DNA of 64,000 nt from the NCBI GenBank assembly GCA_025774805.1, contig JALGZR010000019.1, positions 3,387 through 67,386 on the forward strand. The letters are read 5' to 3'. Numbering within the stretch: position 1 is the first letter of the stretch; each line of letters starts with the position of its first letter. Shown here one piece after another: positions 1 through 28,958 of the stretch. The notes beneath the pieces are model-generated. The model worked only from the letters and a program-made list of their open reading frames with translations, had not been told where the DNA came from and ran no database searches. Made by a program: the position numbers and the translations under genes. Origin of the DNA: a bacterium. GTDB taxonomy: Bacteria > ARS69.

Positions 1-867
1 GATCTGCCGAATCTCCAACACGGCTTTCCGGATTCGCATTTCATCTGCTTCCCTTACGAAAGCCGACGCACCGGAATCTACGCCGCCGGATGCGTGCGCC
101 AGCCCATGGACGGCCTCGCAAGCAGAGAGGACGCGGCGGGGGCCGCGCTGAAGGCGATCCACTGTGTCGAGTTGACCTCCCGAGGAGAGGCGGTTCATCC
201 GCGCGCGGGCGACAAGTCCTACCCCGATTTCTTCCTGCAGAGATGCACGCAGTGCAAGCGATGCACCGAGGAGTGTCCCTTCGGGGTACTCAACGAGGAT
301 ATGAAGGGCACTCCGCTGCTGTGGGCAACGCGGTGTCGTCGCTGCGGGGTCTGCATGGGCGCCTGCCCCGAGCGAATCGTCTCCCTCAAGGATTATTCAG
401 TGGAAATCGTGGCGTCCATGATCAAGGCGGTCGAGGTCCCGGACGAGATCGAGGAGAAGCCGAGGATCCTGGCACTGCTTTGTGAGAACGATGCCTTCCC
501 GGCGTTGGACCTCGTGGGGCAGCACCGCCTGCGATGCAACCCTTACGTTCGCGTCATCCCCGTCAGATGTCTGGGTTCACTCAATCCCGTGTGGGTCTCG
601 GAAGCCCTCTCGGCCGGATACGACGCGGTCCTGTTGATCGGCTGCAAGTACGGCGACGATTATCAATGCCACTTCATCAAGGGGAGCGAGCTGGCTTACA
701 CGCGCAGCGACAACATCAGAGAAAAGCTGGAGAAGATGGCCATGGAGAGCGAGAGGGTCGAGCTCCACCAGCTGCAAATCTCCGACTACGACAAGCTCCC
801 CGAGATATTCGAAAACGCTGCCAGAGTGATCGAAGAGATCGGCATGAACCCGTTCAAGGGAATGTGA
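1..867 (+). CDS. qmoB: QmoB-type HdrA-like subunit, C-terminal part (ferredoxin + MvhD-like domains); 5' end lies outside the window
   Basis: Frame 1 is open from nt 1 (..GIYAAGCVRQPMD..). Two CxxCxxCxxxCP motifs (CTQCKRCTEECP, CRRCGVCMGACP) are followed by MvhD/FlpD-like LALLCENDAF..VIPVRCLGS..LLIGCKYGDDYQCHF. The next gene is QmoC-type. Confidence 0.8.
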   Translation, partial: DLPNLQHGFPDSHFICFPYESRRTGIYAAGCVRQPMDGLASREDAAGAALKAIHCVELTSRGEAVHPRAGDKSYPDFFLQRCTQCKRCTEECPFGVLNEDMKGTPLLWATRCRRCGVCMGACPERIVSLKDYSVEIVASMIKAVEVPDEIEEKPRILALLCENDAFPALDLVGQHRLRCNPYVRVIPVRCLGSLNPVWVSEALSAGYDAVLLIGCKYGDDYQCHFIKGSELAYTRSDNIREKLEKMAMESERVELHQLQISDYDKLPEIFENAARVIEEIGMNPFKGM

Positions 868-918
868 GGGACGTGTAGCGGTTTATGGCGGTTTGCTGTT
901 TGGGGGCGACTCACGAGA

Positions 919-2271
919 GTGGCCGGAGGATGGACGGGGGTGGAAGCCGCCGAGGAGATTCCACAAGTGACACCGAAGACCCGAGCGCAGGAGAGCCTGC
1001 GGACGGCTCCTGCCCCACCGGAAGAAAGCGGTCCGGTCCGCCTCGAGCCGGATCTGGACTTCATTCGCGCGCTGCGCAAGCACGGCGTAGATGACTACAA
1101 GAAGTGCATGCAGTGCGGCACCTGCTCGGCGACGTGCGACCTGTCGCCGGATCACGAGCCCTTCCCACGTAAGGAGCTGGCCTGGGCCGTCTGGGGGATG
1201 AGAGACCGTCTGCTGCGGGACCCGGACGTCTGGCTGTGTCACCAATGCAATGACTGCTCGACGCGGTGCCCCCGCAGCGTCCGGCCGGGAAACATATTGG
1301 CCGCGGTCCGCCAGGAGGGCGTGCTGCACTATGCGTTCCCCCGTTTCCTGGGCCGATGGGTCAACCAGCCCGAGTGGCTGCCACTCTTGCTGGGCATCCC
1401 GATTGCGCTGCTCACGCTCGCTCTCGTCTGGAAGGACCCGATCGAAAGTGCCCTGGGCATTTCGAGGCCAGCCGGCGACAGGATCCTGTACAATTACTCC
1501 AGTGTGTTCCCCCACTGGATGCTGAACGCCTTCTTCGGCTTCTTCAGTCTCCTGGCTCTCGTCGCGATCCTCGTCGGGGTGGTGTGCTTCTGGCGTGCCA
1601 TGAAGGTGGGTGTGCCGCCAGATCGAGTCGCCAACCTGGGCCGCGGCGTCGTCCCGAGCATCTTCACGACCATCAAGACGGTCTTCACCCACGACGACTT
1701 CGTCCAGTGCACGAGGGCCAGCCCGCGGTTCCTTTCCCACCTGTGCGTCTTCTTTGGCTTCCTGGCCCTGACGCTGGTCACGCTGTGGGTGATCACCGCC
1801 AGGTACAACCCCCTGATTCAAGGGGAGTTCATCTATCCCTTCGCCTTCTTGAACCCGTGGAAGATGCTGGCCAACGTGGGCGGTATCGCGCTCATCGCCG
1901 GCTTGCTCCTGATGATTCGAGATCGTTTCAGGGACAGAGAGGATCTCGGCACGGGCTCCTACTTCGACTGGGCTCTGATCTCGAAGCTCCTGTTGGTGGC
2001 GATCACGGGATTCATTACCGAGGTGTTGCACTACCTTCGCCTGGAGCCTCACCGACACATCGCTTACTTCGTACACCTGGCTTTCGTGTTCGCGATCTTG
2101 ATGTACCTGCCGTACTCGAAGCTCGCCCATCTGGCGTACCGTGCCACCGCTATGGTCTTCGCAGAGCACACCGGCCGACACGTGGCAGCGGCGTCTTCCG
2201 TGGCGAACAGCGGGCAGGCTCGTGGGGAAGAGGAAGGAGATGATGTCGGAAGAACCACTGCGGCGCCGTAG
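919..2271 (+). CDS. qmoC: QmoC: HdrC-like di-[4Fe-4S] domain fused to an HdrE/NarI-like heme-b membrane domain
   Basis: CMQCGTCSATC and CHQCNDCSTRCP motifs, then about six hydrophobic helices. The first in-frame start is GTG 919; GTG 940 or 967 are also possible. Confidence 0.8.
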   Translation: MAGGWTGVEAAEEIPQVTPKTRAQESLRTAPAPPEESGPVRLEPDLDFIRALRKHGVDDYKKCMQCGTCSATCDLSPDHEPFPRKELAWAVWGMRDRLLRDPDVWLCHQCNDCSTRCPRSVRPGNILAAVRQEGVLHYAFPRFLGRWVNQPEWLPLLLGIPIALLTLALVWKDPIESALGISRPAGDRILYNYSSVFPHWMLNAFFGFFSLLALVAILVGVVCFWRAMKVGVPPDRVANLGRGVVPSIFTTIKTVFTHDDFVQCTRASPRFLSHLCVFFGFLALTLVTLWVITARYNPLIQGEFIYPFAFLNPWKMLANVGGIALIAGLLLMIRDRFRDREDLGTGSYFDWALISKLLLVAITGFITEVLHYLRLEPHRHIAYFVHLAFVFAILMYLPYSKLAHLAYRATAMVFAEHTGRHVAAASSVANSGQARGEEEGDDVGRTTAAP

Positions 2272-2614
2272 AAGCGCTCTGATCGTGGCCGTTCCAGCGG
2301 TGATCCTGCTGGCTCCTCTCGGATACAGTGTCGTGTCCGCGCTGTTCGCCCGCGAGACCGTACCCTCTCCGACGTTTCTTGAGAGGCCTGACCCGATGTA
2401 CGAGAACTGCGTCAAAGAGACGACGTACATGCGCTACCACCACTGGGAGCTGCTGAGGGCGGTCCGAGAGGAGGTCGTCCGCTACGGAGAGCGGGGGGAG
2501 ATAGGCCTTCACAAGTGCATGGAATGCCACAAGAGTCGAGAACGCTTCTGCAATCAATGCCACGACGCCGTGAGTCTGTATCCGGACTGTTTCGGATGTC
2601 ATTACTATCCATGA
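2240..2614 (+). CDS. Membrane-anchored triheme cytochrome c, DsrJ paralog
   Basis: RBS AGGAAGGAG then ATGATG at 2240, overlapping the qmoC 3' end by 32 nt. N-terminal TM anchor. Three CxxCH motifs (CMECH, CNQCH, CFGCH). Aligns with DsrJ at 27795-28187, including ENCVKET vs EKCVEET. Confidence 0.8.
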   Translation: MMSEEPLRRRRSALIVAVPAVILLAPLGYSVVSALFARETVPSPTFLERPDPMYENCVKETTYMRYHHWELLRAVREEVVRYGERGEIGLHKCMECHKSRERFCNQCHDAVSLYPDCFGCHYYP

Positions 2615-2713
2615 GGACGCGAGTGTGTCTTGTTGCCTCGTTGCGACTGAACGAGAAGATCTTGGAGTCCAAGGGCCACAGAATGGAACAACCGTCCGGA
2701 GGGTAGGCGAAAG

Positions 2714-3454
2714 ATGGACAGAAGAGAGTTCCTGACAGCTACGGGTGGCGTGTTGGTGGCAGGAGGTTCCTCTGTCCATGCGGTCCGATTGCTGACCACG
2801 TCGAGCGTGAGCCGGACAGGCGCAAAAGGCCCGGCGACCAAACGCAAGTGGGGGATGGTCATCAATCTCAACAAGTGCCGGGAGGACTGTACAGCGTGCC
2901 TGGAAGCCTGCCGGGAAGAGAACAACGTGGCCTTCCACGGCGACAGCCGCTGGGACGTGCACTGGATCAGGAAAGTCACAGTCAGGAGCGAAAGCGCCGG
3001 CCAGATCACCGAGAAGCAGGTGCTGTTGCTGTGCAATCACTGCGACAGGCCGCCGTGCGCGCAAGTCTGTCCCGTGCAGGCCACCTACAAACGTGACGAT
3101 GGCATCGTCATCGTGGATCACCACCGATGCATCGGATGCCGGTATTGCATGATCGCGTGCCCGTACAACGCACGGTATTTCAACTTGAAAGAAAGCGAGG
3201 AGTGGCCCAACAAGGAGTTTCCCAAGCGATCGCACGGGGTGGCCGAAGCCTGCACCCTGTGCACGCATCGCCTGGAGAGGAATCAACAGCCGGCATGCGT
3301 CGAAACCTGCGCGCGCAGGGGCTTTGGAGCTTTGACCGTCGGTGATCTGAACGATCCCGAGAGCGATGTTTCGAAGTTGATCGCGAGTCATTCGACCAAG
3401 CGGATCAGAGAGGATCTCGGCACGGAGCCGAAGGTCCACTATATCGGCCTCTAG
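2714..3454 (+). CDS. Tat-exported 4Fe-4S ferredoxin-type subunit, DsrO/PsrB/HybA family (DsrO paralog)
   Basis: Twin-arginine signal MDRREFLTA. Cys clusters CNHCDRPPCAQVCP and CIGCRYCMIACP. Paralogous to the ORF at 28178-28951. Confidence 0.85.
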   Translation: MDRREFLTATGGVLVAGGSSVHAVRLLTTSSVSRTGAKGPATKRKWGMVINLNKCREDCTACLEACREENNVAFHGDSRWDVHWIRKVTVRSESAGQITEKQVLLLCNHCDRPPCAQVCPVQATYKRDDGIVIVDHHRCIGCRYCMIACPYNARYFNLKESEEWPNKEFPKRSHGVAEACTLCTHRLERNQQPACVETCARRGFGALTVGDLNDPESDVSKLIASHSTKRIREDLGTEPKVHYIGL

Positions 3455-3599
3455 CCCGGACTATTCATGAACGACCTGCTGCGATCGCGGATCCGCACCA
3501 CCGGACGGGCGTCCTCGCGTCTCGCACCCTGCGACGTATCGTTCAGATACGACTCGGGTTCGAGATCTCGCGACGGCCCTTCATGAATAATCCGGGCTA
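3452..3599. mobile_element. Family-1 palindromic miniature element (MITE/REP-like), copy 1
   Basis: Terminal inverted repeats TAGCCCGGACTATTCATGAA ... TTCATGAATAATCCGGGCTA. A second copy lies at 23803-23983. The first TAG is the stop codon of the upstream gene. Confidence 0.6.
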
Positions 3600-3611
3600 G
3601 GAGAGGGCGAC

Positions 3612-4814
3612 ATGCAGCTCGAGTTCGAGAGGATCGAGGGAGGGTCAGTTCAATACCACGCGACGTTGACGATCCTGGCGGCGCTGGCCGTCGCGGGCGT
3701 GGTCGCCACGTGGTGGGTCTCCGAACAGGGGATCTGGGTGACGGGGATGAACAACCGGGTTCCCTGGGGCCTCCAGATCGTGATGGCCGTGTATTACATC
3801 GGGTTGTCGGCCGGGTCGCTCGTCATCTCCGGCTTGTACGGAGTCTTCGGAAAGGTGGAGTACAAGCCGTTCGCGAGAATCGCAGTCTATCTGGCGATGC
3901 TCTTCCTGATTGCCGGTCTGCTGTCGATCCTCACGGACCAGGGAAGGATGGACCGGGTCTTCGTCGAACCATTCGTCTACTTCAATCTCCAGTCGATGTT
4001 CTCGATCAATCCGATCCTGTACATCGGACACATCCTGATCTGCGTGCTTTACCTTTGGGCGCTGTTCGAGGAGAGGAAAACGCTGACGAAGGTGGTGGCA
4101 ACCGTCGCCTTCGGGTGGGCCTTCTGCGTGCACAGCGGCACGGGGGCGATCTTCGGCTTCGGAGCGCGCGTGCTGTACGAATCGCCCCTGCTGCCGGCGA
4201 GTTTCGTGGCGGCGGCCATGGCATCGGGCACCGCGCTAATGATCTTGGTGATCGTCGCCCTGTTCAGAATCACGAGGCGGCCGTTGGACGACGAGCTGGT
4301 GCTATGGCTCGGACGGTTTCTGGCCGTGTGCATCATCGTGGTCGTGTACTTCCTGTTCATGGAGAACGCCTACCGAGTCTACGTCGTCGAGCTGCGCTAT
4401 GCGGCGCTGTACTATCTTTTCGATGGCCTTCACGGCTTCCTGTTCTGGGGTGGGCTCGTCATTGTCGGCCTGATCGTCCCCATGGCGATCCTCTTCATTC
4501 CCAGGACTGGCAAGTCGATTCGGTGGGTCGGCATCGCATCCGCCCTGGTGGTATTCGGTGTCCTGTGCGAGCGGTATGTGATCGTCATTCCCGGGCTGAC
4601 ACACCCGCCGGAGCTTTTTCCGGGCATGGAGGTCATCGGACTCCGAGAGGGAATCGTCGATTATTCGGTCAGTTTCGCCGAGATTGTCCAAGCTCTGGGT
4701 GTGCTGGGGGCCATCGGTTTCCTGTTCGTCTGGGGTTTGAAAACTTTCAAACTGCTACCGACGGAGGCGCGGGCTGTGGTGCAGCCCGCCGCCGCCAAGG
4801 CTCCGGTTAGCTGA
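3612..4814 (+). CDS. NrfD/PsrC-type integral membrane subunit (DsrP paralog)
   Basis: 400 aa and hydrophobic throughout (about 10 TM helices). RBS AGGAGAGG before ATG 3612. Same family and length as DsrP at 28959-30116. Confidence 0.85.
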   Translation: MQLEFERIEGGSVQYHATLTILAALAVAGVVATWWVSEQGIWVTGMNNRVPWGLQIVMAVYYIGLSAGSLVISGLYGVFGKVEYKPFARIAVYLAMLFLIAGLLSILTDQGRMDRVFVEPFVYFNLQSMFSINPILYIGHILICVLYLWALFEERKTLTKVVATVAFGWAFCVHSGTGAIFGFGARVLYESPLLPASFVAAAMASGTALMILVIVALFRITRRPLDDELVLWLGRFLAVCIIVVVYFLFMENAYRVYVVELRYAALYYLFDGLHGFLFWGGLVIVGLIVPMAILFIPRTGKSIRWVGIASALVVFGVLCERYVIVIPGLTHPPELFPGMEVIGLREGIVDYSVSFAEIVQALGVLGAIGFLFVWGLKTFKLLPTEARAVVQPAAAKAPVS

Positions 4815-4975
4815 CACGAGTGGGGATCTCGAAGCATGGAGCCCAATTCCCTCTTTAAGAACGATTGCGGATACAGCATAGGCAGTCGCTCCGGTTCGAG
4901 AGGCGTGCCCACTAGTAACTCTATGGAACGTCGCGTTATACTTCACAATCGCTTTCGGTACACGAGGAGTGAGTC

Positions 4976-5425
4976 ATGCCCGAGGACAAAGAAGTCCTGA
5001 TCATCGACGACAGCGAAGAGAACGTCGCCTTCATGCAGGAGATTCTCCAGGAGATGGGACTCCCGTCCCGGGTGGCCTGTAACGGGAAAGAGGGGATACA
5101 GGCGCTGCGGGAGAAGCGACCCGACCTTGTTCTGCTGGACGTCATGATGCCCCGCAAGAGCGGCTTGAAAGTCTTCCAGGAGATGAAGCGGGATCCCGAG
5201 CTCGAGAAGATCCCGATCATCATTGTCACCGGGCTCGGCGAGGTCACCGGCGTCGATATCGAGACGGGCCGGGAGGACGAGAAGGAGAGCTACCGGGACG
5301 ACGTCGTACGTCGTTTCGGAGCGAGTCTTCGCAAGCAGCTTGCCGGTCTCACGCCAGACGGTTTGGTCGAGAAGCCGATCGATCCCCCGGAGCTCATGGG
5401 CAAGATCAGAGAGCTCCTGTCCTAG
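4976..5425 (+). CDS. Single-domain CheY-like response regulator
   Basis: VLIIDDSEENV..PDLVLLDVMMPRKSG..IPIIIVTG..LVEKP. RBS GAGGAG. Paralog at 37634-38083. Confidence 0.9.
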   Translation: MPEDKEVLIIDDSEENVAFMQEILQEMGLPSRVACNGKEGIQALREKRPDLVLLDVMMPRKSGLKVFQEMKRDPELEKIPIIIVTGLGEVTGVDIETGREDEKESYRDDVVRRFGASLRKQLAGLTPDGLVEKPIDPPELMGKIRELLS

Positions 5426-5445
5426 CACCGAGGTTTCCGGCGGAC

Positions 5446-7458
5446 GTGGCAGACCGGCGCCGGAGCCTTAGACCCGGAGCCCAGCCGGTGGCGAGCCGAG
5501 GCCGGAGCATCCAGTGGCGGATCATGGCGCGGCTGTTGCCGCTGCTGGCACTCGTCTTCGCCGCCGTGATGATCTGGCTGAGCACGGTCCAGCGAGACGC
5601 GCTCTACGCGAACAACCTGGAAACCGTCCGGCGTGCGAGCCGCGCGACGGTCCGCGCCACCGACGTCTCGATGCTGAACGCGCAGGGAGATCATCCCTGG
5701 GACTGGCTGAGACCGAGGATCGAGACGCAAGAGGGTACCTGGATCCGGATTGTCGGCGCGCAGGGTCGGATGGCCTTCTCGAGCGACCCGACCGAGGTGG
5801 AAACACCTCCCGATCTCGATGATTTTTCCTGCGCGCCCTGCCACGCGGGGAGGCCCGATCCGGTTCCCGCGACGGCCATCGTGCCGGGACCAGGTGGAGA
5901 TCACTACCAGGTCCTGGCCACGCCCTTGCACAATCGCGATGAATGCCGTGTCTGTCACGAGGCGCAGGAACCGAACCTCGGAATCGTCCTGGTGGGTCAG
6001 AGCGTCGAACCGATTCGCCGGGTCGTGCGGACCGTTCGGATCGGCATCGCCGTTGCTGTCGGGATCGCTCTGTTGCTGACGATCTTGACGACACGGATGG
6101 TGCTTGGTCGGCTGCTGGGCCGGCCTCTGCAAAGGCTTGTGAAGGGGGCGCGGTCGATCGGGGCCGGCGATCTCGGACAGCCGATCTATCTGGGTGAAAC
6201 CACGGAGTTGACCGAGCTGGCCGACGCGCTGAACCTCTCGACATCGCGGCTGGCGGAAATGATCCACCGCGTGGAGCGGCAGCGCGACGAGTTCCGGACC
6301 CTGTATCACTTCACCGATCAGATCAATCGCGCCGTTCGACCGGAAGAGCGCCGGCGCCGTGCCGTGGAGCTGGCGACCCAGTTCCTGGGAGCCGAGTGCG
6401 TCCTCGTCCAGGCCGACTACCAACCGGAGTCACAGACCGGACAGGGAACGATCACGCTCCGCGAAGCCGGAGGTTTCGAGGATCATCCGTTCCGGTTCGG
6501 CCCCGACGCTCAGGAGGGTGTCCCACCGTTCCTGAGCCGGATCATCGAGCGCTGGCTGAAGGGCGAGTTCGACGACAAGGCCATGGTGAAGGAAGGCTGG
6601 ATCGAGGGCTACCCCGTGCAGCACGAGGGAGGGCAGCATCTGGGACTCCTTCTGCTACCGATTGACCGGTTCGGCGAAACGGAGCAGGTGCCGCCCGACC
6701 CCGACTTGGTTCGCGCGATGTGCCGTCACATCGCGATCGCGATCGAGTTCTCGGGGATGCAGACCGAGCTCGTCGGCCAGGAGCGCCTGGCGGCGATCGG
6801 AGAGACCATCGCCGGACTGGCGCACTGCCTGAAGAACGCTCTCAACGCGCTACGCGCGGGTCTGTTCATTACGGACCGCGCACTCGATGGAGACGACCCG
6901 GAGAAGCTCCGTCGCGGGTGGCGCATCACCAAGGTGGGGATCCGGCAGATCGAGGAGCTCAGCCTCGACATGCTCTACTACGTCAAGGAACGAAAGCCCG
7001 TGCGCAAACAGACGAATCCAAACGTAGTCGTCCGAAAAGTCATTGAATTGCTGAGCGAGACGGCATCCGAAAGAGACGTCCAGCTGCGCGTGGAGCTCGA
7101 CGAGCAAGTCGGTGGTGAGCTGCTGGATCGCACCACGATCTACCGGGCAATCCTGAATCTCGTGACCAATGCGATCGACGCGTGCACCGAGTCGGAGACC
7201 GGGGATCTCGTGGTGGTGCGGACCCTCTCTACGCCGGACGGGATCGTGCTGACCGTCGAGGACAACGGCATCGGGATGACGGACGACGTCCGTTCCCGGC
7301 TGTTTACCCGCCTCTTCTCGACCAAGGGCGGCAAGGGAACCGGTCTGGGTCTCGCCGTGGTCAAGAAGATCGTGGAGGAGCACGGTGGATCCGTCGAGGT
7401 CGAGTCGACGCCGGGGCGCGGCTCGTCGTTCCAGATACGCCTGCCACGATCAAGCTGA
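5446..7458 (+). CDS. Sensor histidine kinase with a periplasmic domain carrying two CxxCH motifs, HAMP, a GAF-like region, DHp and HATPase
   Basis: A TM helix, then CAPCH (5829-5843) and CRVCH (5944-5958), a second TM helix, HAMP, H-box GLAHCLKN, and N/G boxes (NLVTNAIDA, DNGIGM, GTGLGL). The GTG 5446 start is supported because IQWRI aligns with IQRRI of the paralog at 38119. Confidence 0.85.
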   Translation: MADRRRSLRPGAQPVASRGRSIQWRIMARLLPLLALVFAAVMIWLSTVQRDALYANNLETVRRASRATVRATDVSMLNAQGDHPWDWLRPRIETQEGTWIRIVGAQGRMAFSSDPTEVETPPDLDDFSCAPCHAGRPDPVPATAIVPGPGGDHYQVLATPLHNRDECRVCHEAQEPNLGIVLVGQSVEPIRRVVRTVRIGIAVAVGIALLLTILTTRMVLGRLLGRPLQRLVKGARSIGAGDLGQPIYLGETTELTELADALNLSTSRLAEMIHRVERQRDEFRTLYHFTDQINRAVRPEERRRRAVELATQFLGAECVLVQADYQPESQTGQGTITLREAGGFEDHPFRFGPDAQEGVPPFLSRIIERWLKGEFDDKAMVKEGWIEGYPVQHEGGQHLGLLLLPIDRFGETEQVPPDPDLVRAMCRHIAIAIEFSGMQTELVGQERLAAIGETIAGLAHCLKNALNALRAGLFITDRALDGDDPEKLRRGWRITKVGIRQIEELSLDMLYYVKERKPVRKQTNPNVVVRKVIELLSETASERDVQLRVELDEQVGGELLDRTTIYRAILNLVTNAIDACTESETGDLVVVRTLSTPDGIVLTVEDNGIGMTDDVRSRLFTRLFSTKGGKGTGLGLAVVKKIVEEHGGSVEVESTPGRGSSFQIRLPRSS

Positions 7459-7465
7459 CGCCGGG

Positions 7466-8290
7466 TCAAGACCTGACCAGCAGCGGAAGCTCGGTCTCCA
7501 AGTTGGCGGGACGAACGCGCACGAGCCACGTGTCGGCGCCGATGGAAGACGGGTGATCCAGCGCTCCCTGGTTGACTTCCAGCACTTGGCCGCTCAGGGG
7601 CACGAACACGTTGTGTGATTCGCCGGAGGCGGTCTTCAGTCTGAAGCCGACCAATCCCTGCTCGATGAGATCGCTCTCGCCGGGAGCGTCCAGTGAAGCG
7701 AGAGCGTCCACGGTGTCCAGAAACGATGCCTCGATGCCCATCCTGATCGTGCCGTCCTGCTGGTAGACGGCCCAAGAGTGCTCCCGCAGGTGAAAGCGAT
7801 CGCCGGGCTTGAGCTTCAGCACCGGGAACTCGGCGCTCTCCGTTGCGGCCAGTGCCTCCGCGGTGGACGGCCCGGGCGCCACGGCACGGCGCAGTGTGCG
7901 ATTGACTGGCCCCAACAGCTCCTGCCGCGTGAAGGGCTTGGACAGATAGTCCACCGCGCCGAGGCGCAGCGCGTGGAGCGCGGTGCGGATCGTCGGGTAG
8001 CCCGTGATCATCAGCACCGGCACCTCTTGGCCCTTGGCGCGCATCTTCTCCATCAGCTGGATGCCGTTGATGTCGGGCATCATCAGGTCCATGATCACCA
8101 GGTCGTACGTTCGTGATGCAAGCAGCTCCAGCGCTTCCGGGGCTCCGAACGCCGCGTCCACCTGATGCCCTTGTCGGCCCAGTATGCGTTGCAGGCTGTC
8201 GTGGATGATTTCCTCGTCGTCTATGACCAGGATGCGGGACCCGTCGCCGGTCTGGCGGTCCTGCCGCTGTTTGATCGGCGCCTTTCCCAT
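7466..8290 (-). CDS. Response regulator: REC domain fused to a glycine-cleavage-H-like (GcvH-like) domain
   Basis: REC: ILVIDDEE..DLVIMDLMMPDING..LMITGY..YLSKP. The C-terminal 120 aa align with GcvH (EHSW..DGTIRMGI..LKTASGES..VPLSGQVLEVN..P....W). Confidence 0.8.
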   Translation of the reverse strand: MGKAPIKQRQDRQTGDGSRILVIDDEEIIHDSLQRILGRQGHQVDAAFGAPEALELLASRTYDLVIMDLMMPDINGIQLMEKMRAKGQEVPVLMITGYPTIRTALHALRLGAVDYLSKPFTRQELLGPVNRTLRRAVAPGPSTAEALAATESAEFPVLKLKPGDRFHLREHSWAVYQQDGTIRMGIEASFLDTVDALASLDAPGESDLIEQGLVGFRLKTASGESHNVFVPLSGQVLEVNQGALDHPSSIGADTWLVRVRPANLETELPLLVRS

Positions 8291-8331
8291 TGCCGTGCTC
8301 CTTGCCAGTCCGTTCGGGTGCGGCGAACGGC

Positions 8332-10155
8332 CTACTCGGTCGAGACCGGTAGGACGATACGAAACTTGCTGCCGGTACCCTCTCGGCTCTGCACTTCCAC
8401 GCGACCTTCGTGCCGCTCTACGATCGTGCGCACCGCCGCCAGACCGAGGCCGTATCCCTCTTCTCCCTTACTCGAAACGAACGGTTCGAAGATGTCTCCG
8501 AGTCGGTCTTCCGGGATTCCGCAGCCCGTGTCGGACACGGTGATTTGCACCGTATCCTCGTCGTCGTCGGCGGCCGTCCGGATGGAGATCTCGCCGCGGG
8601 ATTTCATCGCGTCTCTGGCGTTGATCACGAGGTTCAGCAAAGCCTGGTGGATCTTGTGGGGATCGGCATGAATGTCCGGCAGGTCATCTTGGAGATCGAC
8701 GTCGAATTCGATGTTGTGAAACGAGGCCTGACGCTCCACCATGGTCAACATGTGCGAGATGACGTCGTTGATGTGGATCCACTGCCGGTCCAGCCTTTTT
8801 GGGCGCGAGAACTCCAGCAGATCCCCGACGATACGCCGACAGCGCAGTGTTTCGTTAACGATGACCTCGTAGTCCTTGCGAACGGGGTCGTCGGCGTCGG
8901 CCTCCAACAGCAGATCCTCGGCAAACGTGAGGACCCCGCTAAGAGGGTTGTTCAGCTGGTGGGCGACGCCGGCGGCGAGCCGGCCGACGGCCGCGAGCTG
9001 TTCGGTCCGCACGAGCTCGCGCTGAAGCTGCCGCCGCCGGGTTTGGTCCTGGCTGACGCAACAGATGCCCACGACGTCTCCCTTGTAGTCTCTGAGAGGA
9101 AGCCGCTCCGACGCCAAGATCCGCTCCTTCCCCCGGATCTTGAGCACCTCCTCGCTGACATGACGGCCGCCGGTGGCGAGCGTCTCTTGGTCTAGCTTTT
9201 GGATGAGGTCGGCCGTCTCCTTGTCGAACACGTCGGCGGCAGTCTTGCCGATCATTTCGTCGCGGCTCATGCCGACCACTTCCTCGGTCCAGGGATTGAC
9301 GACCAGGTAGCGGCCCTCAAGGTCCTTGATGGTGATGACGCCGTGCACCGCGTTGATGATTTGCTGGAAGCGCCGAGCGGACTCCTCGGTCTCTCGCTTC
9401 AGCGTGACCTGCTCGGTGATTTCGCGAGCGGTCTCGACGACCCGCGTGATCTTCCGATGCTCGTTGAACAGAGGGATCGCCGTGATCTGGAAGTGCCCTT
9501 CTTTGCCGGACGAGGCCAGCGCGCTCCGGATCACAGTGACCGGCTGTCCGAAGGTGGTGACCTCGTCGAGGAGTTCGGTGAGATTCGCCGACCAGTCCGC
9601 AGCGTCTTCCCGGGTGAAAACATCGCGGATCGACAGACCACGCACCTTGTCGCGCGTCTTCCCGGCAATGCGCACGAACCCCTCGTTGACACGAACGATG
9701 CGCATCTCCTGGTCGAGCACGACGACCACGTCCGGAATGGCGTCCAAGATGTCCTGGAGCAGGGCGCGATCGCGGTCGACCTTGGATTGCAGCTCGGTCT
9801 TCTCGTGGAGCTCCCCCAACAGGTTCTCTGCCACGTCCCCCAGATCCCAAAACACCCGGGCCACGAAGTGGTCCATAACCCTGACACCGGGCGGAACGTG
9901 CCGGTGAATCCGATCCAGCACCTCGTCCGAACCGGTCAGCTCGATGACCAGTTCGAGGCCGGGAAGAGCCAACGCATGCTTCACGGAGCCCAGCGTTTTC
10001 CAGCCACGATCTCGGGCGAAACGCATGCCAGGCGCGTCTGGATCGATGTCGACCACCGCGAGGATGTGAGGGTCGAGGAATCGCAGCTTCCCTTGCTCGA
10101 AAAGCTCGAGGAAAGCGCGGCAGCCTGGCCCGGCACCGATGACCGCGGTCTTCAT
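8332..10155 (-). CDS. Cytoplasmic sensor histidine kinase: Rossmann-like N-domain, two PAS domains, DHp, HATPase
   Basis: N-terminus MKTAVIGAGPGCRAF (GxGxxG-like). PAS-like segments. H-box AAGVAHQLNNPL. NLVINARDA, DTGCGI, GYGLGL. Confidence 0.85.
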   Translation of the reverse strand: MKTAVIGAGPGCRAFLELFEQGKLRFLDPHILAVVDIDPDAPGMRFARDRGWKTLGSVKHALALPGLELVIELTGSDEVLDRIHRHVPPGVRVMDHFVARVFWDLGDVAENLLGELHEKTELQSKVDRDRALLQDILDAIPDVVVVLDQEMRIVRVNEGFVRIAGKTRDKVRGLSIRDVFTREDAADWSANLTELLDEVTTFGQPVTVIRSALASSGKEGHFQITAIPLFNEHRKITRVVETAREITEQVTLKRETEESARRFQQIINAVHGVITIKDLEGRYLVVNPWTEEVVGMSRDEMIGKTAADVFDKETADLIQKLDQETLATGGRHVSEEVLKIRGKERILASERLPLRDYKGDVVGICCVSQDQTRRRQLQRELVRTEQLAAVGRLAAGVAHQLNNPLSGVLTFAEDLLLEADADDPVRKDYEVIVNETLRCRRIVGDLLEFSRPKRLDRQWIHINDVISHMLTMVERQASFHNIEFDVDLQDDLPDIHADPHKIHQALLNLVINARDAMKSRGEISIRTAADDDEDTVQITVSDTGCGIPEDRLGDIFEPFVSSKGEEGYGLGLAAVRTIVERHEGRVEVQSREGTGSKFRIVLPVSTE

Positions 10156-11377: not shown

Positions 11378-11503
11378 ATGACGACGCTCTACTGTCTGAC
11401 CGGTGCCGCGGTGCTCTTCGTCCTGCTCTCGCTGATCCCGGAATGGATCGAGAAGCGGTACGGCGACAGCGACGTTCTCGCCGGCAACAGGAGAGGCGCG
11501 TGA
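11378..11503 (+). CDS. Possible 41-aa single-TM micro-protein
   Basis: MTTLYCLTGAAVLFVLLSLIPEWIEKRYG... Its stop overlaps the next start (TGATG). No homology recognised. Confidence 0.3.
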   Translation: MTTLYCLTGAAVLFVLLSLIPEWIEKRYGDSDVLAGNRRGA

Positions 11504-12411
11504 TGGCAGAGACGGTGGTTTTTGCCATTCTGACGGCGTGGATCTGGGTGGCCCTGGGCGTGATGGTGGTCGGCTGTGCCTGGCGGGCGATGAGTTGGGC
11601 GCGGGCTCCCGAGCACCTGCGCTGGGACCTCTACCCGGTGGCCCATGAGCCGGGCCGGGCCCATGGAGGTTCCCACCTGGAGCACAAGGACTGGTGGACC
11701 CGGCCCCGACGAAAAAGCCACCTTGGCGAGATCTCCTTCATGGCACTGGAGATCCTGCTTCTCAAGGGTGTCTGGGAGAACAACCGGAAGATCTGGTGGG
11801 GCTCGCTTCCATTCCACTGGGGTCTCTACGCGCTGGTGCTCACCACCCTGGGCGTCTTTCTCGCGGCCACCGGTCTCGTGCCCGGTCCCTGGCCGACCGT
11901 GCTGGCGGTGGCCGGCACGCTGGGTGGCAGCGCCACCGCCGCCGGCGCGCTGATCCTGCTCATGCTCCGCTCGACGGACCCGCGTTTGCGCCCGTGCACC
12001 GCGCCGGTGGACCGGCTCAATCTCACCCTGCTCATCCTCGTCGGGGGACTGAGCGCCGCGGTGGCAGCGGGCCCCGGGGGCATGCAAACGGTCACCATGG
12101 CTGTGGCGCAGATCGCCCGGCTGGACCCGCCCCGGGTCTCCGCCCTGATCGGTCTGCAGATGGCCACGGCCGCGCTGTTCCTTCTCTATCTGCCGTTCAC
12201 GCGGATGGTTCACTTCTTCGCAAAATACTTCACCTATCACAAGGTGCGCTGGGATGACCGTGAAGTCCTGCCGGGAAGCTCCCTGGAGAGACGTCTCCGC
12301 GCCTCTCTGGACTTTGGCGTGACTTGGTCTGCGGAGCATGTCCGGACGGGGGAAACCTGGCTCGAGGTGGCAACGACGCTTCCCAAAGAGTCCGCGAAGA
12401 ACGGAGACTGA
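11503..12411 (+). CDS. NarI/HdrE/DsrM-like heme-b membrane subunit (second MK-type module)
   Basis: Hydrophobic helices. C-terminal LYLPFTRMVHFFAKYF resembles DsrM FIYFPFSKLVHMGGVF at 25187-26179. RBS GGAGAGG before ATG 11503. Confidence 0.75.
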   Translation: MAETVVFAILTAWIWVALGVMVVGCAWRAMSWARAPEHLRWDLYPVAHEPGRAHGGSHLEHKDWWTRPRRKSHLGEISFMALEILLLKGVWENNRKIWWGSLPFHWGLYALVLTTLGVFLAATGLVPGPWPTVLAVAGTLGGSATAAGALILLMLRSTDPRLRPCTAPVDRLNLTLLILVGGLSAAVAAGPGGMQTVTMAVAQIARLDPPRVSALIGLQMATAALFLLYLPFTRMVHFFAKYFTYHKVRWDDREVLPGSSLERRLRASLDFGVTWSAEHVRTGETWLEVATTLPKESAKNGD

Positions 12412-12413
12412 GC

Positions 12414-14024
12414 GTGCCTCTCCCGCACCTGAAGAGCCCCGAGGACGTCGAGCGCTTTCTCGACGAGAACGAGGGGCTGGACGTCAAGAATCTGGTCCCT
12501 TTGCCCCACCCTTACGAGGACTGGGAGGATGAGCCGATCCCTGCGCTGACCGAGGAGCAGCGCGGTCGCTACGAGGTGGGGCCGGACGGGATCAGTGCCA
12601 CGCGGACGCCCGTCCCGGAGACCGAGGAGGAACGGGAGGAGAAGGTCGCCGGGTTCCTCGAAGGGCTGGGCAAGCTCCTGACGAAGGAGAACAACTGGAC
12701 GTTTCTCCAGCCGTTGCTGCTCTCCCTCGACAACTGCGTCAAGTGTCAAACCTGCTCCGAATCTTGCCCCATCTACACGGCGTCGGGAAGGCCGGAGCAA
12801 TACCGGCCGACGTTCCGGGCGGAGGTGCTCCGGAAGATCATCAGTCGCTACCTCAAGCCAGGTGGGAACCTCTTCCCGAAGCTACGGGGCAACGATGTCG
12901 AGCTGAACTGGGAAGCGGTCATCCAACTTGCCGAGCTGTCCTACCGTTGCACCCTCTGCCGGCGCTGTGCCCAGGCTTGTCCCGTGGGCGTGGACAATGC
13001 CCTGATCACTCGGGAGATCCGAAAGCTCTTCAGCCAGGAGCTGGGCATCCACATGCCGGAGCTACACGACGTCGGGACGGTGAAGCAGCTCGCCACGGGC
13101 TCGTCCACCGGTCTCAACCCCGCCGGGGTCCGGGACATCGCCGAGTTCACCGAGGAGGACATCCGCGAGAAGACGGGGCTGGACATCAGAATCCCGTTCG
13201 ACGTCGAGGGGGCCGACTATTTGGTGATGCACAACGCGGGGGAGTTCCTCTCCTGGCCGGAGAATCTCCAGGCGTTCACCATCATCCTCACGGTCGCTGG
13301 CGTGAACTGGACCATGGCCTCCGACAAGATTGGTTACGACTCAGTCAATTACGGTCTGTTCTACGACGACGTCCAGCTCTCCAGAATTGCCCTCAGGCAC
13401 TACGAGGTGGCGAAGAAGCTGAAGGCCAAGAGGTTTCTGATGGGGGAGTGCGGGCACGCTCACAAGGCGACCATGCCCATCGCCGGCCGCGTCCTCCCGA
13501 AGGAGCTCCAGGTGCCGGGCGAGAGCGCTCTGGTCCTGCTGGAGGATCTAGTGATGAACGACCGGATCAGACTCGATCCGTCACGCAACGACTTTCCGGT
13601 GACGCTCCACGATCCCTGCAACATCACGCGCTCCATGGGCATCGTCCAGCCGCAGCGCAACATCCTGAAGAAGATCTGTCCCCAGTTTCGCGAGATGGAG
13701 CCGCACGGTGTCAATAACCTCTGCTGTGGCGGCGGCTCGGGCTTCGCGGTAGGCCAAGGCCTGAACTTCCCCGCGTGGCGAACGCGCGTTTCGGGCCGGC
13801 TCAAGTTCTGTCAGATTCTCGAGGCCTTCTCCGCCAGCATTGAACCGGAGACGAAGAAGTACGTCTGCGCTCCCTGTTCCAATTGCAAGGGACAGTTGCG
13901 GGACATCCTCACCTACTACCAGGGATGGGATCGGTGCGGCATCTTGTATGGGGGGTTGGTCGAGCTCATTGTCAATGCAATGGTCGATGTTCCGGAGGGT
14001 TTCCTGGAGTGGGAGTTCCATTGA
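12414..14024 (+). CDS. HdrD/DsrK-like iron-sulfur (CCG-domain) subunit
   Basis: CVKCQTCSESCP, CTLCRRCAQACP, HDPCN and NLCCGGGSGF motifs. GTG 12414 lies 3 nt after the upstream stop. Confidence 0.8.
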   Translation: MPLPHLKSPEDVERFLDENEGLDVKNLVPLPHPYEDWEDEPIPALTEEQRGRYEVGPDGISATRTPVPETEEEREEKVAGFLEGLGKLLTKENNWTFLQPLLLSLDNCVKCQTCSESCPIYTASGRPEQYRPTFRAEVLRKIISRYLKPGGNLFPKLRGNDVELNWEAVIQLAELSYRCTLCRRCAQACPVGVDNALITREIRKLFSQELGIHMPELHDVGTVKQLATGSSTGLNPAGVRDIAEFTEEDIREKTGLDIRIPFDVEGADYLVMHNAGEFLSWPENLQAFTIILTVAGVNWTMASDKIGYDSVNYGLFYDDVQLSRIALRHYEVAKKLKAKRFLMGECGHAHKATMPIAGRVLPKELQVPGESALVLLEDLVMNDRIRLDPSRNDFPVTLHDPCNITRSMGIVQPQRNILKKICPQFREMEPHGVNNLCCGGGSGFAVGQGLNFPAWRTRVSGRLKFCQILEAFSASIEPETKKYVCAPCSNCKGQLRDILTYYQGWDRCGILYGGLVELIVNAMVDVPEGFLEWEFH

Positions 14025-14296: not shown

Positions 14297-15973
14297 ATGG
14301 CCGGCCCCGAGAAGAAGCGCAGCCCGCTGATCGCGCTGGAGGACTGGTGGACCGTCTGGTTCGGTCTCGTCATCATCCTCGTCGCGACCGCACTGTCGCT
14401 CGCGACCTACTCCGGGAGCCTCACGCAGCTGAAGGTGCCCAAGCTGGGCGGTTGGGTTTCCAGCCCGATCGACGCCTTCTACGGAGCGAAGGAGACCAAG
14501 CTGACTCTGAAGGAGGACGTGACTCCGGCCACTCTCGCCGAGGCGATCAACGCCAAGAAGCCGAAGGCGACGGCCGAGGTCGTCCCCGCCGAGGGGGGCG
14601 TCCGGCTGAGGATCTCCTCCGATCGGGACAGGGCGGGCCAGGTGATCAAGGTCTCTCCCAACCTGATGGGAGGGGAGGAGCTCACGTTCACGAAAGAGGA
14701 CCCGGATCCGGACGGCATGGGGGCGAAGGCCTACGTCTCCCAGGTGTTCCCCTCCGACTCCGTCAATCTGGGCAGCGGCCTCTTCACCGTCAGCGCTCAG
14801 CGGACCGGCGTGCTGATCTTGCCCTGGATCGTGGCTTTCGCCCTGGTCGGGATCCTCACGGCCATCGGCGTGTCGGTGATGGGGCAGAGCCCCGGGAAGT
14901 ACTTCCTGGCCTTCGTCGTCATCCTGTTGCTGGCGGTGATCTCCTACACCGTCGCGAATCAGGTGCAGATCAAGGGTTGGGGGCTGAGCTACGCCATGTG
15001 GGCTCTGCTGATCGGTCTCCTGATCTCGAACACGATCGGCACCCCCGAGTGGCTCAAAGCCGGTGTTCGCACCGAGATGTACATCAAGACCGGGCTCGTG
15101 CTGCTGGGCGCCGAGATCCTGTTCGGCAAGATCCTGAGCCTCGGACCCCCGGGGTTGATGGTCGCTTGGATCGTCACGCCGACCGTGATCCTCTTCATGT
15201 GGCTCTTTGGCACCCGCATTCTCAAAATGAAGAGCAAGTGCCTCGTGATCATCATCGCCGCGGCGACCTCGGTCTGCGGCGTCTCGGCCGCCATCGCCGC
15301 GGCGGGGGCCTCACGGGCCAAGAAGGAGGAGCTGACGCTCGGCGTCGGGATGACGCTGTTCTTCACCGTGCTGATGATGATCTTCATGCCGATCGGCATC
15401 AAAGCGGCCGGCATGTCCGACGTGCTGGGGGCGGCCTGGATGGGCGGCACCATCGACGCCACCGGAGCGGTCGTGGCCGCCGGGTCCATGCTCGGTCCGC
15501 GGGCCGAGACGGTCGCCGCAGTGGTGAAGATGATCCAGAACGTGCTCATCGGCATCGTGGGGTTCTTCATCGCGGTCTACTGGGTCATCGTGGTCGACCG
15601 GGTTCCCTCGGGGCCCCGGCCCAACGCGATGGAGATCTGGCACCGGTTCCCGAAGTTCATCATCGGGTTCATCGGCGCCTCGCTCGTCTTCTCCTTCGTT
15701 CTCTCGCCGCTCTTCGGATCGCTGTTTTCGGGAGACGGCCTGAAGCTGGTGGAGAAGGGGGTGATCAAAGCCGTCACGAATCCCCTGCGGGGCTGGTTCT
15801 TCTGCCTCGCCTTCGTCAGCATCGGGCTCGAGTCGAACTTCCGGGAGCTGGCGAAACAGATGGAGGGCGGCAAGCCGATGGTCCTCTACGTCGTCGGGCA
15901 GAGCTTCAACCTGGTTCTGACCCTGTTCATGGCGTGGCTCGCCTTCCTCGTCCTGTTTCCGCACGCGATCTGA
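14297..15973 (+). CDS. YeiH/UPF0324-family membrane transporter (annotated elsewhere as putative sulfate exporter family) with an extra N-terminal soluble insert
   Basis: RBS AAGGAGGAGG. Family-typical ..TGLVLLGAEI..IIIAAATSVCGVSAAIAAAGA... About 120 non-hydrophobic residues lie between TM1 and TM2. Confidence 0.8.
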   Translation: MAGPEKKRSPLIALEDWWTVWFGLVIILVATALSLATYSGSLTQLKVPKLGGWVSSPIDAFYGAKETKLTLKEDVTPATLAEAINAKKPKATAEVVPAEGGVRLRISSDRDRAGQVIKVSPNLMGGEELTFTKEDPDPDGMGAKAYVSQVFPSDSVNLGSGLFTVSAQRTGVLILPWIVAFALVGILTAIGVSVMGQSPGKYFLAFVVILLLAVISYTVANQVQIKGWGLSYAMWALLIGLLISNTIGTPEWLKAGVRTEMYIKTGLVLLGAEILFGKILSLGPPGLMVAWIVTPTVILFMWLFGTRILKMKSKCLVIIIAAATSVCGVSAAIAAAGASRAKKEELTLGVGMTLFFTVLMMIFMPIGIKAAGMSDVLGAAWMGGTIDATGAVVAAGSMLGPRAETVAAVVKMIQNVLIGIVGFFIAVYWVIVVDRVPSGPRPNAMEIWHRFPKFIIGFIGASLVFSFVLSPLFGSLFSGDGLKLVEKGVIKAVTNPLRGWFFCLAFVSIGLESNFRELAKQMEGGKPMVLYVVGQSFNLVLTLFMAWLAFLVLFPHAI

Positions 15974-16459: not shown

Positions 16460-17656
16460 ATGAGCGAACAGAAGAAGGGGACGCCGCTCCTGGACGAGCT
16501 GGAAAAGGGTGCATGGCCCAGCTTCGTCAAGGAGATCAAGAAGGAAGCGAAGAGGCCGATGGTGCGGGATCTCCTGGGCGTCCTGGAGCGCTCCTACGAG
16601 GAGAAGATCGGCCACTGGAAGCACGGCGGACTGGTCGGCGTGATGGGATACGGAGGCGGCGTCATCGGCCGCTACTGCAATCTCGGGGAGGAGTTTCCCG
16701 AGGTCGCCGAATTCCACACGTTGCGTGTCAACCAGCCCGCCGCGTGGTTCTACACCTCCGACGCACTGCGCAAGCTGTGCGACGTCTGGGACGAGCACGG
16801 GTCGGGCCTGACCAACATGCACGGCTCGACGGGCGACATCATCTTCCTCGGCGCCAAGACGGAGGAACTGGAGCCGACGTTCTCCGGGCTGACGGAAGCC
16901 GGGTTCGACCTGGGTGGCTCCGGGTCGGACATGCGCACGCCGAGCTGCTGCGTCGGGCCGGCCCGCTGTGAATGGGCATGCTACGACACCCTCAACGCGT
17001 GCTACGACCTCACCCAGCAGTTCCAGGACGAGCTGCACCGACCGATGTTCCCCTACAAGTACAAGTTCAAGTTCGCCGGCTGTCCGAACGACTGCGTGGC
17101 TTCGGTGGCCCGGGCGGACATGTCCATCATCGGGACCTGGAAGGACGAGATCCAGATCGACCAGAAGGAAGTCCAGGCCTACGCCAAGAACGGCACGGAC
17201 ATCCAGAAGGAGATCTGTGACCTGTGTCCGACGAGGTGCATGGACTGGGACGGCCAGAAGCTCGAGATCGACGACGCCGAGTGCGTCAAGTGCATGCACT
17301 GCATCAACGTGATGTCCAAGGCGTTGAAGCCGGGCCAGGAACGTGGTGCCGCCATCCTCATCGGCGCGAAGGCACCGATCATCGGTGGGGCCCTGCTGTC
17401 GTCGGTGCTCGTCCCGTTCATCGAGATGAAGCCGCCGTACGAGGACCTGAAGGAGCTCACCGAGGCCATCTGGGACTTCTGGGGTGAGCATGGCAAGAAC
17501 CGCGAGCGCGTTGGGGAATTCATCCAGCGTGTGGGACTCGGGGCGTTTCTCGACGAGATCGGTCTGGAACCCGTGCCCGAGATGATCGCGCACCCGCGCA
17601 GCAATCCCTACATCTTCTTCGAGGAAGATCTCGAGGAAGAGGATGAGGACGAGTAG
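16460..17656 (+). CDS. dsrA: Dissimilatory sulfite reductase alpha subunit
   Basis: [53 protein letters not shown], plus ferredoxin insert CPTRC..CVKCMHC. Confidence 0.95.
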
Positions 17657-17694
17657 CTCCGGGCATGCGAGTAGCTCCGGGCAAGGAGGCTTCC

Positions 17695-23983: not shown

Positions 23984-24038
23984 GGCAATTCGACCGATCT
24001 CGGGGCGGAAGCTCCGGATAACAAAGAGGAGAGATGAG

Positions 24039-26179: not shown

Positions 26180-26185
26180 TCGGTC

Positions 26186-28951: not shown

Positions 28952-28958
28952 GGTGACT

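Follow-up and report, generated by a model that had tools for sequence, protein, structure and literature searches.

Does the Qmo complex, known as a set of three subunits that donates electrons to adenosine 5'-phosphosulfate (APS) reductase, extend in some bacteria to the periplasmic face of the membrane? This question is raised by the start of a 64,000-nt stretch of bacterial DNA (hereafter the window; GTDB lineage ARS69, assembly GCA_025774805.1, contig JALGZR010000019.1, positions 3,387 to 67,386, forward strand), in which qmoC is followed on the same strand by genes for paralogues of DsrJ, DsrO and DsrP (J2, O2 and P2). We found this arrangement as a six-gene cassette, qmoA-qmoB-qmoC-J2-O2-P2, in many uncultured lineages. 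Judging from gene order, protein families and gene fusions, we consider it rather probable that the cassette encodes one membrane-spanning, DsrMKJOP-like complex in which Qmo takes the place of DsrMK and for which AprAB would be the most likely partner. In papers up to 2026, including those used here for comparison (PMC6303296, PMC3333476), QmoABC is still given as a three-subunit complex.

A JOP-type module downstream of qmoC

The window begins within qmoB (Table 1), and qmoA and everything further upstream lie outside it. The 3' part of qmoB encodes the C-terminus of an HdrA-like flavoprotein, with a FlpD/MvhD domain (Pfam FlpD, 4e-36) and Fer4 domains containing two 4Fe-4S motifs, and is 71-87% identical to the QmoB C-termini that lie 5' of QmoC in related loci. 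As in QmoABC operons, qmoA and qmoB are located directly 5' of qmoC, the window holding part of qmoB and its relatives both complete genes (qmoA 403-420 aa, qmoB 756-757 aa). QmoC scored 377 bits on the NCBIfam equivalog model for this protein (NF038018, cut-off 300) and matched an HdrC domain at residues 61-134; eight Cys and six His residues were invariant in 46 cassette QmoCs. Six hydrophobic helices were predicted, which would place the C-terminus of QmoC on the cytoplasmic side.

The ATGATG start of J2 (2240-2245) lies directly 3' of GAGGAAGGAG, and the TAG stop of qmoC occupies 2269-2271, so that the two genes overlap by 32 nt. J2 starts with an RRRR sequence followed by one N-terminal transmembrane helix and three CxxCH motifs, which were present in all 51 J2-type sequences. 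The single additional Cys, in ENCVKET, aligned with EKCVEET of the DsrJ encoded elsewhere in the window (27795-28187; 35% identity, E 7e-22), and DsrJ was the sole NCBIfam family that matched J2. This Cys and an MR..HW motif, both common to J2 and the window DsrJ, were conserved in at least 95% of the J2 family (n=51). J2 therefore has the structural features of DsrJ (membrane anchor, three CxxCH motifs and an extra conserved Cys), and by analogy with DsrJ one of its haems c is probably His/Cys-ligated.

O2 contains a twin-arginine motif at its N-terminus (MDRREFL) and scored 284 bits on the DsrO model (NF045797, cut-off 200), followed by TtrB at 173 bits. It was 41% identical to the window DsrO; all 16 Cys were invariant, and the RR.F[LIVM] motif was found in 40 of 46 members. 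Its closest relatives of solved structure were ArrB and PsrB/NrfC, generic matches of the PsrB/NrfC type. P2 belongs to Pfam NrfD (E 4e-48). Its best named family was DsrP, with QrcD next at 46 bits, far under the cut-off, and its identity to the window DsrP was 25%. Some thirty charged, His or Tyr positions of P2 were kept across the cassette. An AlphaFold model of low to moderate confidence showed about ten transmembrane helices and best matched ActC/ActF of alternative complex III, which have ten helices (TM-score approximately 0.5-0.6); eight-helix PsrC fitted less well. According to this model, P2 would be, like DsrP, a cofactor-less NrfD protein with about ten helices, and it is presumed to interact with quinone. 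A sequence search of solved structures gave no match for J2 or P2, and QmoC was matched by its HdrC domain only.

J2-O2-P2 is an additional JOP-type set, as the same window encodes a complete canonical dsrMKJOP (DsrM 494, DsrK 727, DsrJ 156, DsrO 293 and DsrP 458 bits on the NCBIfam models). By sequence, it is a second and more divergent JOP-type module in which only O2 reaches Dsr status by curated thresholds. An initial inspection of the window without database searches (the sequence-only reading) had noted the 32-nt overlap, aligned the triheme cytochrome with DsrJ including its N-terminal Cys, and taken the Tat (twin-arginine translocation) poly-ferredoxin and the NrfD-type protein for paralogues of DsrO and DsrP. 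Each of these observations was borne out.

Conservation of the six-gene cassette

We retrieved loci via P2, with one genome per species, and obtained 54, of which four were too short 5' of P2 and one ended at J2. In 48 of the 49 informative loci QmoB, QmoC, J2, O2 and P2 were encoded in this order on one strand; the full gene order was qmoA-qmoB-qmoC-J2-O2-P2. Carriers belong to about a dozen phylum-level groups, mostly uncultured, and the record titles include Zixibacteria, Planctomycetota, Acidobacteriota, KSB1, LCP-89, Calditrichaeota, Latescibacterota, Gemmatimonadaceae, Fibrobacteraceae, Ignavibacteria and Candidatus Electryonea. The sequence-only reading had called for a gene-neighbourhood search from qmoC; the search made here from P2 found qmoABC in front of the JOP-like genes in nearly every informative locus. 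More than 1000 P2 homologues occurred in the protein collection; the best 120 were 75-91% identical to P2 and were labelled Zixibacteria, Planctomycetota, KSB1 and Acidobacteriota. In the databases J2 is a "hypothetical protein" almost everywhere, and P2 is labelled "polysulfide reductase NrfD".

All-against-all clustering of the flanking open reading frames (ORFs) yielded seven widely shared families: P2, O2, QmoC, J2, QmoA/B, a histidine kinase (35 loci) and a receiver (34 loci). Beyond these, the flanks were unrelated between loci. Chance adjacency of qmoC and J2-O2-P2 was rejected, as the order recurs in 48 of 49 loci. The two closest relatives of the window cassette (P2 identity 89% and 86%) had the order qmoA-qmoB-qmoC-J2-O2-P2-receiver-kinase, with unrelated genes upstream and no apr genes, and the same eight genes were found on a complete Zixibacteria chromosome. 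Median pairwise identity across the cassette was 74% for P2, 65% for O2, 53% for QmoC and 50% for J2.

The single exception was a Zixibacteria genome (bin119, L048, 8001-8822), where P2 lacks its 5' end, only residues 126-397 are encoded, and unrelated genes precede it. In another locus (L045, 3627-5149), two ORFs of 237 and 202 aa were located between qmoB and qmoC. Both loci show signs of cassette decay or insertion.

Junctions within the cassette were short. qmoC and J2 overlapped in 27 of the 48 loci and were within 30 nt of each other in 45, with a median distance of -4 nt; between J2 and O2 the median gap was 27.5 nt, and between O2 and P2 it was 22 nt. The O2-P2 spacer of the window is longer, 157 nt versus the median of 22 nt in other loci, because a palindromic element was inserted in it, and not because it is a separate promoter region. 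This element (3451-3600, approximately 150 nt) has 26-nt terminal inverted repeats (CTAGCCCGGACTATTCATGAA...) and a predicted RNA fold of -76 kcal/mol (z -4.1). A second copy of approximately 185 nt was found at 23802-23985, between a TPR gene and dsrC, and a 16-nt core occurred four times in the window versus 0.01 expected. The repeat looks like a miniature inverted-repeat transposable element (MITE) or a repetitive extragenic palindromic (REP) element; no Rfam family matched it or any other part of the window. A promoter consensus scan of 1-8400 found none, and four terminator-like matches were at chance level and outside the junctions, a result that is uninformative and does not count as support.

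Fusions of QmoC with the J cytochrome

At least four distinct sequences, belonging to two clades, combine QmoC and the J cytochrome in one polypeptide. In one of them (P0122, 545 aa), the QmoC tail continues into a J2-type helix and three CxxCH motifs; three contigs from separate assemblies encode the identical protein, with the gene order qmoA-qmoB-fusion-O2-P2. Another protein, of 556 aa (P0452), is fused in the same way. The other two (P0132, 561 aa, found on six contigs, and P0454, 506 aa) belong to a related but distinct sister lineage of QmoC. Apparent QmoC-J2 fusions in five further loci (L014, L022, L031, L039 and L044) were rejected, as a stop codon separated the two genes on translation. 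When two proteins are fused in some lineages, this is a standard indication that their separate counterparts act together elsewhere. Given a cytoplasmic C-terminus of QmoC, the one additional helix would place the haem domain of J2 on the periplasmic face.

These fusions bear on the possibility that qmoABC and J2-O2-P2 are co-transcribed but encode two separate complexes, the latter a free-standing quinone:cytochrome c module that is linked to Qmo only via the menaquinone pool. Such an arrangement would have precedents, as NrfCD-type modules work alone or with various partners (PMC6303296) and cable bacteria have a detached locus of dsrOP homologues with a tetrahaem cytochrome (PMC13047784). 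However, the fusions occur in both clades and recur in independent assemblies, qmoC and J2 overlap in most loci, and J always directly follows qmoC, even in the sister operons described below, where O and P are located six genes away. We consider two separate complexes unlikely.

A sister architecture linked to APS reductase

When representatives of 1.8 billion clusters were searched with the window QmoC (HMMER), two full-length matches scored 557 and 538 bits; beyond these, scores fell to 392 bits and then to 320 bits or less. The next-best ordinary QmoC (P0123) was 49% identical to the window protein and occurred in the context qmoABC-sat-dsrC-dsrTMKJOP, with no JOP of its own. We built a neighbour-joining tree from 130 QmoC sequences. 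All 47 sequences from cassettes grouped with two representatives (P0121 and P0122) in one clade, whose sister group included P0131, P0132, P0133 and P0139.

The sister clade had a different operon form with overlapping gene ends: dsrO-like, dsrP-like, aprB, aprA, qmoA, qmoB, qmoC, J. It was found in a Polyangiaceae metagenome-assembled genome (L065), in environmental contigs (L066 and the P0131 contig), and in three loci in which J was fused to QmoC (L057-L059). The O and P proteins of these operons were 50-54% and 43-45% identical to the canonical DsrO and DsrP of the window, closer than to O2 and P2. What both architectures have in common is a J-type cytochrome that either directly follows QmoC or is fused to it. 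A direct link to APS reductase is thus suggested by gene order for the sister architecture only.

One contig of this group (L066, 1092-16466) contains dsrL-dsrN-dsrC-dsrM-dsrK-dsrJ without dsrOP, and the only local OP pair heads the convergent apr-qmo operon. On this contig a J-type cytochrome follows dsrK and another follows qmoC, an arrangement suggesting that two J-tethered modules could share a single OP pair. In one locus of the fused type (L057, 1-2144), genes for HdrC-like, HdrB-like (CCG domain) and short HdrA-like proteins precede the sister operon, also with overlapping ends, and AprBA and Qmo::J may be encoded in a single transcription unit with Hdr-like and DsrOP-like components. 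Genes for a QrcA-like cytochrome, for an iron-sulfur protein of 975 aa and for a further NrfD protein were located 6 kb downstream.

Comparison with known complexes

All parts of the cassette are of known kinds; only their combination is new. Like DsrMKJOP, the cassette combines a JOP-type module with a membrane subunit of the dihaem-b type and with an Hdr-related part in the cytoplasm; among named families, J2, O2 and P2 match DsrJ, DsrO and DsrP best or exclusively. Unlike in DsrMKJOP, where JOP is encoded with dsrM and dsrK, J2-O2-P2 follow qmoABC, and the cytoplasmic part is QmoABC (HdrA-like flavoproteins and an HdrC-like domain), with no CCG catalytic cluster and no DsrK. Reduction of DsrC trisulfide is therefore not expected. 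Compared to QmoABC, the cassette keeps all iron-sulfur Cys and conserved His of a QmoC that passes the equivalog model, as well as QmoA and QmoB of normal size in relatives. It differs in three extra subunit genes after qmoC, in the occasional fusion of J to QmoC, in its own QmoC clade and two-component system, and in not being located beside sat-aprBA.

In Hmc, Tmc, Nhc and Ohc, too, a haem-b membrane subunit connects an Hdr-related protein in the cytoplasm to a c-type cytochrome in the periplasm, which may or may not be accompanied by a ferredoxin and NrfD pair. The cassette follows the same logic; however, its cytochrome is a DsrJ-type triheme protein and not a member of the cytochrome c3 family, and its cytoplasmic module is QmoAB and not HdrD-like. 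QrcABCD and ActABCDEF likewise combine an NrfCD-type quinone module with periplasmic c-type cytochromes, but the cassette lacks their molybdopterin-like QrcB/ActB N-terminal subunit and multihaem QrcA/ActA, and has a cytoplasmic flavoprotein module that is absent from Qrc and alternative complex III. With the NCBIfam models, Hmc/Tmc gave no match on J2 or P2 and QrcA/B gave none; O2 scored just 79 bits on HmcB and 144 bits on QrcC, the latter far under its cut-off, and both under the Dsr models. We rejected membership in Hmc, Tmc, Qrc, Ttr, Nrf and Psr, as the Ttr, Nrf, Qrc and Hmc models were far below the Dsr models or had no match. By these model scores, none of the three paralogues falls in with an unrelated complex of known name; according to the sequence-only reading, such a grouping would have refuted the Qmo-JOP proposal. 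The closest parallel for detached paralogues is the dsrOhPh locus of cable bacteria and other Desulfobulbales, which has DsrOP paralogues away from dsrMK, its own c-type cytochrome and a clade apart from canonical DsrP; there the cytochrome is a tetrahaem protein and no adjacency to Qmo was reported (PMC13047784).

Two-component system and other features of the window

A receiver adjoined the cassette in 34 loci and a kinase with a variable sensor domain in 35; the window receiver was 80% identical to that of L056. The window kinase contains CAPCH at residue 129 and CRVCH at residue 167, between transmembrane helices 30-48 and 196-214. Two CxxCH motifs were also found in the cassette kinases of L021 and L056, and Zixibacteria-type cassette kinases had none or one. 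The second kinase of the window is a paralogue of the first; each has two CxxCH motifs (at approximately residues 129 and 167) and is paired with a DVU0259/DivK-like receiver. The haem-c kinase and receiver probably tune cassette expression to the periplasmic redox state. On the closest related contig, a pair of genes for the receiver/glycine-cleavage-H-like fusion and the PAS kinase was also located 3' of the cassette.

Downstream of P2 the gene order is receiver, kinase, two regulator genes on the opposite strand, a DsrM-like/DsrK-like pair, the YeiH-family gene, dsrA, dsrB, the DsrL-like gene, dsrN, dsrC, a dsrT-like gene and dsrMKJOP (Table 1). In the additional pair, the DsrM-like protein (11443-12411) matched Pfam Nitrate_red_gam (NarI family), and the DsrK-like protein (12324-14024) scored 329 bits on the DsrK model, which has a cut-off of 400. 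A dsr operon that includes an NAD(P)H sulfur oxidoreductase, comparable to the CoA-disulfide-reductase-family flavoprotein of the window, was mentioned for Tariuqbacter (PMC10439189). If the small ORF after dsrB is dsrD, then dsrD and dsrL would be combined in one genome. This combination has been reported for some Acidobacteria and Thermonerobacter.

Table 1. Features of the window, with positions counted from its first nucleotide.
Feature	Position	Strand	Remarks
qmoB, 3' part	1..867	+	frame open from base 1; gene runs off window start
qmoC	919-2271	+	HdrC-like cytoplasmic domain with two [4Fe-4S] and six-helix haem-b membrane domain
J2	2240-2614	+	membrane-anchored periplasmic triheme cytochrome c, DsrJ paralogue, 124 aa
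O2	2714-3454	+	Tat-exported periplasmic ferredoxin, 16 Cys in four cluster-binding motifs, DsrO paralogue
Palindromic MITE/REP-like repeat element	3451-3600	none	inserted in O2-P2 spacer; not a component of the complex
P2	3612-4814	+	cofactor-less NrfD-type membrane subunit, about ten helices, distant DsrP paralogue
Single-domain receiver, DVU0259/DivK-like	4976-5425	+	Pfam Response_reg 2e-20
Sensor histidine kinase	5446-7458	+	HAMP and HATPase_c domains; two CxxCH haem-c motifs in periplasmic loop
Receiver fused to glycine-cleavage-H-like (lipoyl/biotinyl-type) domain	7466-8290	-	
PAS sensor kinase	8332-10155		adjoins the receiver/glycine-cleavage-H-like fusion gene
Second DsrM-like/DsrK-like pair	11443-14024	+	without JOP genes; upstream of dsrAB
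YeiH-family transporter gene	14297-15973		between DsrM-like/DsrK-like pair and dsrAB
dsrA	16460-17656		
dsrB	17665-18771		
Small ORF, 83 aa	18781-19032		no family match; directly after dsrB, in the usual place of dsrD
DsrL-like NAD(P)-binding iron-sulfur flavoprotein gene	19576-21306		
dsrC	24039-24356		dsrN upstream and dsrT-like gene downstream, before dsrMKJOP
Canonical dsrMKJOP	25037-30116	+	all five proteins above curated NCBIfam cut-offs
CoA-disulfide-reductase-family flavoprotein gene	30122-31801		322 bits, below cut-off; starts 5 nt past dsrP
Second receiver and paralogous sensor kinase	37634-38083 (receiver), 38119-39642 (kinase)		

Discussion

The sequence-only reading had proposed that this operon recreates the MKJOP architecture with Qmo in the position of MK, and synteny, gene junctions and QmoC-J fusions support this proposal. 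In the complex that we favor, the haem-b and iron-sulfur domains of QmoC would connect to the HdrA-like flavoproteins QmoA and QmoB, and J2, whose single helix follows the cytoplasmic C-terminus of QmoC or is fused to it, would hold three haems c on the periplasmic face. O2, the haems of J2 and the haems b of QmoC could then carry electrons between the cytoplasmic flavins and either menaquinone at P2 or donors in the periplasm. In this way Qmo would gain a second quinone site and a periplasmic connection. On the cytoplasmic side, APS reductase would be the likeliest partner, in line with the sister operons, with electron flow possible in either direction. A dsrL-like gene is present in the window, which we note beside the question of direction. 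Ramos et al. (2012) argued that menaquinol (-75 mV) alone cannot drive APS reduction (-60 mV) against the membrane potential and proposed a third partner of Qmo, for which no gene co-localized with sat-aprBA-qmoABC (PMC3333476). The JOP module may be such a co-localized third partner.

Several points weigh against this reading. J2 scored 64.4 bits on the DsrJ model (NF038038, cut-off 100) and P2 87.8 bits on the DsrP model (NF045798, cut-off 350), and the pLDDT (predicted local distance difference test) score of the P2 model was 64.5. Retrieval through P2 shows that P2 implies Qmo and not the reverse; in two loci (L062 and L063) an ordinary QmoC is followed by sat and dsrC-dsrTMKJOP. Carriers are metagenome-assembled or single-cell genomes, start codons of the loci were assigned by a simple heuristic that makes individual gap values approximate, and correlations of pairwise distances among the four cassette proteins were moderate (0.44-0.62). 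The QmoC tree was computed by neighbour-joining without support values, and the branch to the cassette clade is short. As to the APS link, Pfam and NCBIfam scans detected no sat or aprBA in the annotated part of the window, and the linkage to sat/aprBA typical of QmoABC was absent from the flanks of all cassette loci as well. In addition, a supplementary synteny table of Neukirchen et al. (2023) lists for LCP-89 B3_LCP, the genome of our locus L013, both DsrP-DsrO-QmoC-QmoB-QmoA and a separate AprA-AprB-Sat-QmoB-QmoA-QmoC (PMC10504309). With a second, apr-linked Qmo set in this genome, the cassette may serve a partner other than APS reductase.

The strongest alternative follows from these last points. 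The six-subunit complex may be real but constitute a paralogous Qmo-like system that does not work with APS reductase. Through its HdrA-like flavins it might instead connect the quinone pool or the periplasm to ferredoxin, NAD(P)H, DsrL or some other redox protein, and APS reduction would be left to the ordinary, apr-linked Qmo. Apart from LCP-89 and the absence of apr or sat next to the cassette in all 48 loci, this would agree with the separate clade of cassette QmoCs (35% median identity to other QmoCs), with the two-component system of the cassette, and with Zixibacteria B5_G4 and B22_G1 (fragmentary), which have cassette genes plus a separate apr-linked qmoC or extra qmoB genes. The same table gives QmoC-DsrO-DsrP for B5_G4 and, in several Zixibacteria rows, sat-aprBA with its own qmoC and qmoAB adjoining dsrAB (PMC10504309). 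The cassette is therefore an additional Qmo set at least in the LCP-89 genome and apparently in Zixibacteria. On the other hand, the sister QmoC clade, with the same QmoC-J adjacency, shares an operon with aprBA, and the cassette QmoC still passes the curated QmoC model. Moreover, the cassette contains no CCG/HdrB- or HdrD-type catalytic subunit, which points to electron transfer to a separate protein, and AprAB is the sole documented partner of Qmo, direct interaction and electron transfer being known for Desulfovibrio Qmo only (PMC3333476). We regard a partner other than AprAB as possible, if rather doubtful.

It is highly improbable that J2-O2-P2 is the JOP half of a split second DsrMKJOP and its adjacency to qmoC incidental: the DsrM-like and DsrK-like genes without JOP are located 6.6 kb downstream on the same strand and extra dsrMK copies are common (PMC10861901), but two oppositely oriented regulator genes lie in between, the conserved neighbour is Qmo, the fusions involve QmoC, and no DsrM or DsrK homologue was found beside the cassette in other loci, the sole nearby match being a 29%-identical HdrD-like gene in L018.

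The sequence-only reading had also suggested that APS reduction gains a second quinone site or a periplasmic link. The architecture proposed for the complex would agree with this part of the proposal; however, the window-type cassette is never beside apr or sat, and the apr link is confined to the sister operons. On its further suggestion that the arrangement is undescribed, a full-text literature search, with most subscription journals outside its reach, found neither a text on Qmo with subunits of the JOP type nor one on a fusion of QmoC with a cytochrome; it took in the large synteny study, the DiSCo classifier paper, a 2023 review of sulfate reducers, the biochemical work on DsrMKJOP and a 2026 paper on Qrc. 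The gene order itself is already visible, undiscussed, in the supplementary table cited above. The same study noted clades of DsrO "homologous sequences" beside NrfD genes, with the comment that their "function is not clear" (PMC10504309).

Tentatively, DsrJ-type cytochromes may be general adaptors that dock a DsrOP-type quinone module onto haem-b/Hdr-like modules, either DsrMK or QmoABC. This idea fits the contig with dsrMKJ but no dsrOP, where the sole local OP pair heads an aprBA-qmoABC-J operon. If it is true, sulfate respiration in many uncultured phyla would use the same kind of periplasm-facing machine with two quinone sites for both of its reductive steps, or for these steps run in reverse, and JOP would be the long-sought third partner that couples APS reduction to the membrane potential.

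The cassette bears on two questions in sulfur-cycle bioenergetics that are more than a decade old, the energy coupling of Qmo-driven APS reduction and the purpose of DsrJOP. Barbosa et al. (2024) called the role of DsrJOP an enigma and suggested quinone cycling or proton pumping (PMC10861901). The presence of a JOP module on Qmo argues for a generic device coupling quinone and periplasm, and not one specific for DsrC. The cassette is thus a candidate answer to the third-partner problem, a new handle on the role of DsrJOP, and a defined six-subunit target for expression and structural work. As its current annotation labels hide it, metabolic reconstructions of the carrier lineages miss a major respiratory complex.

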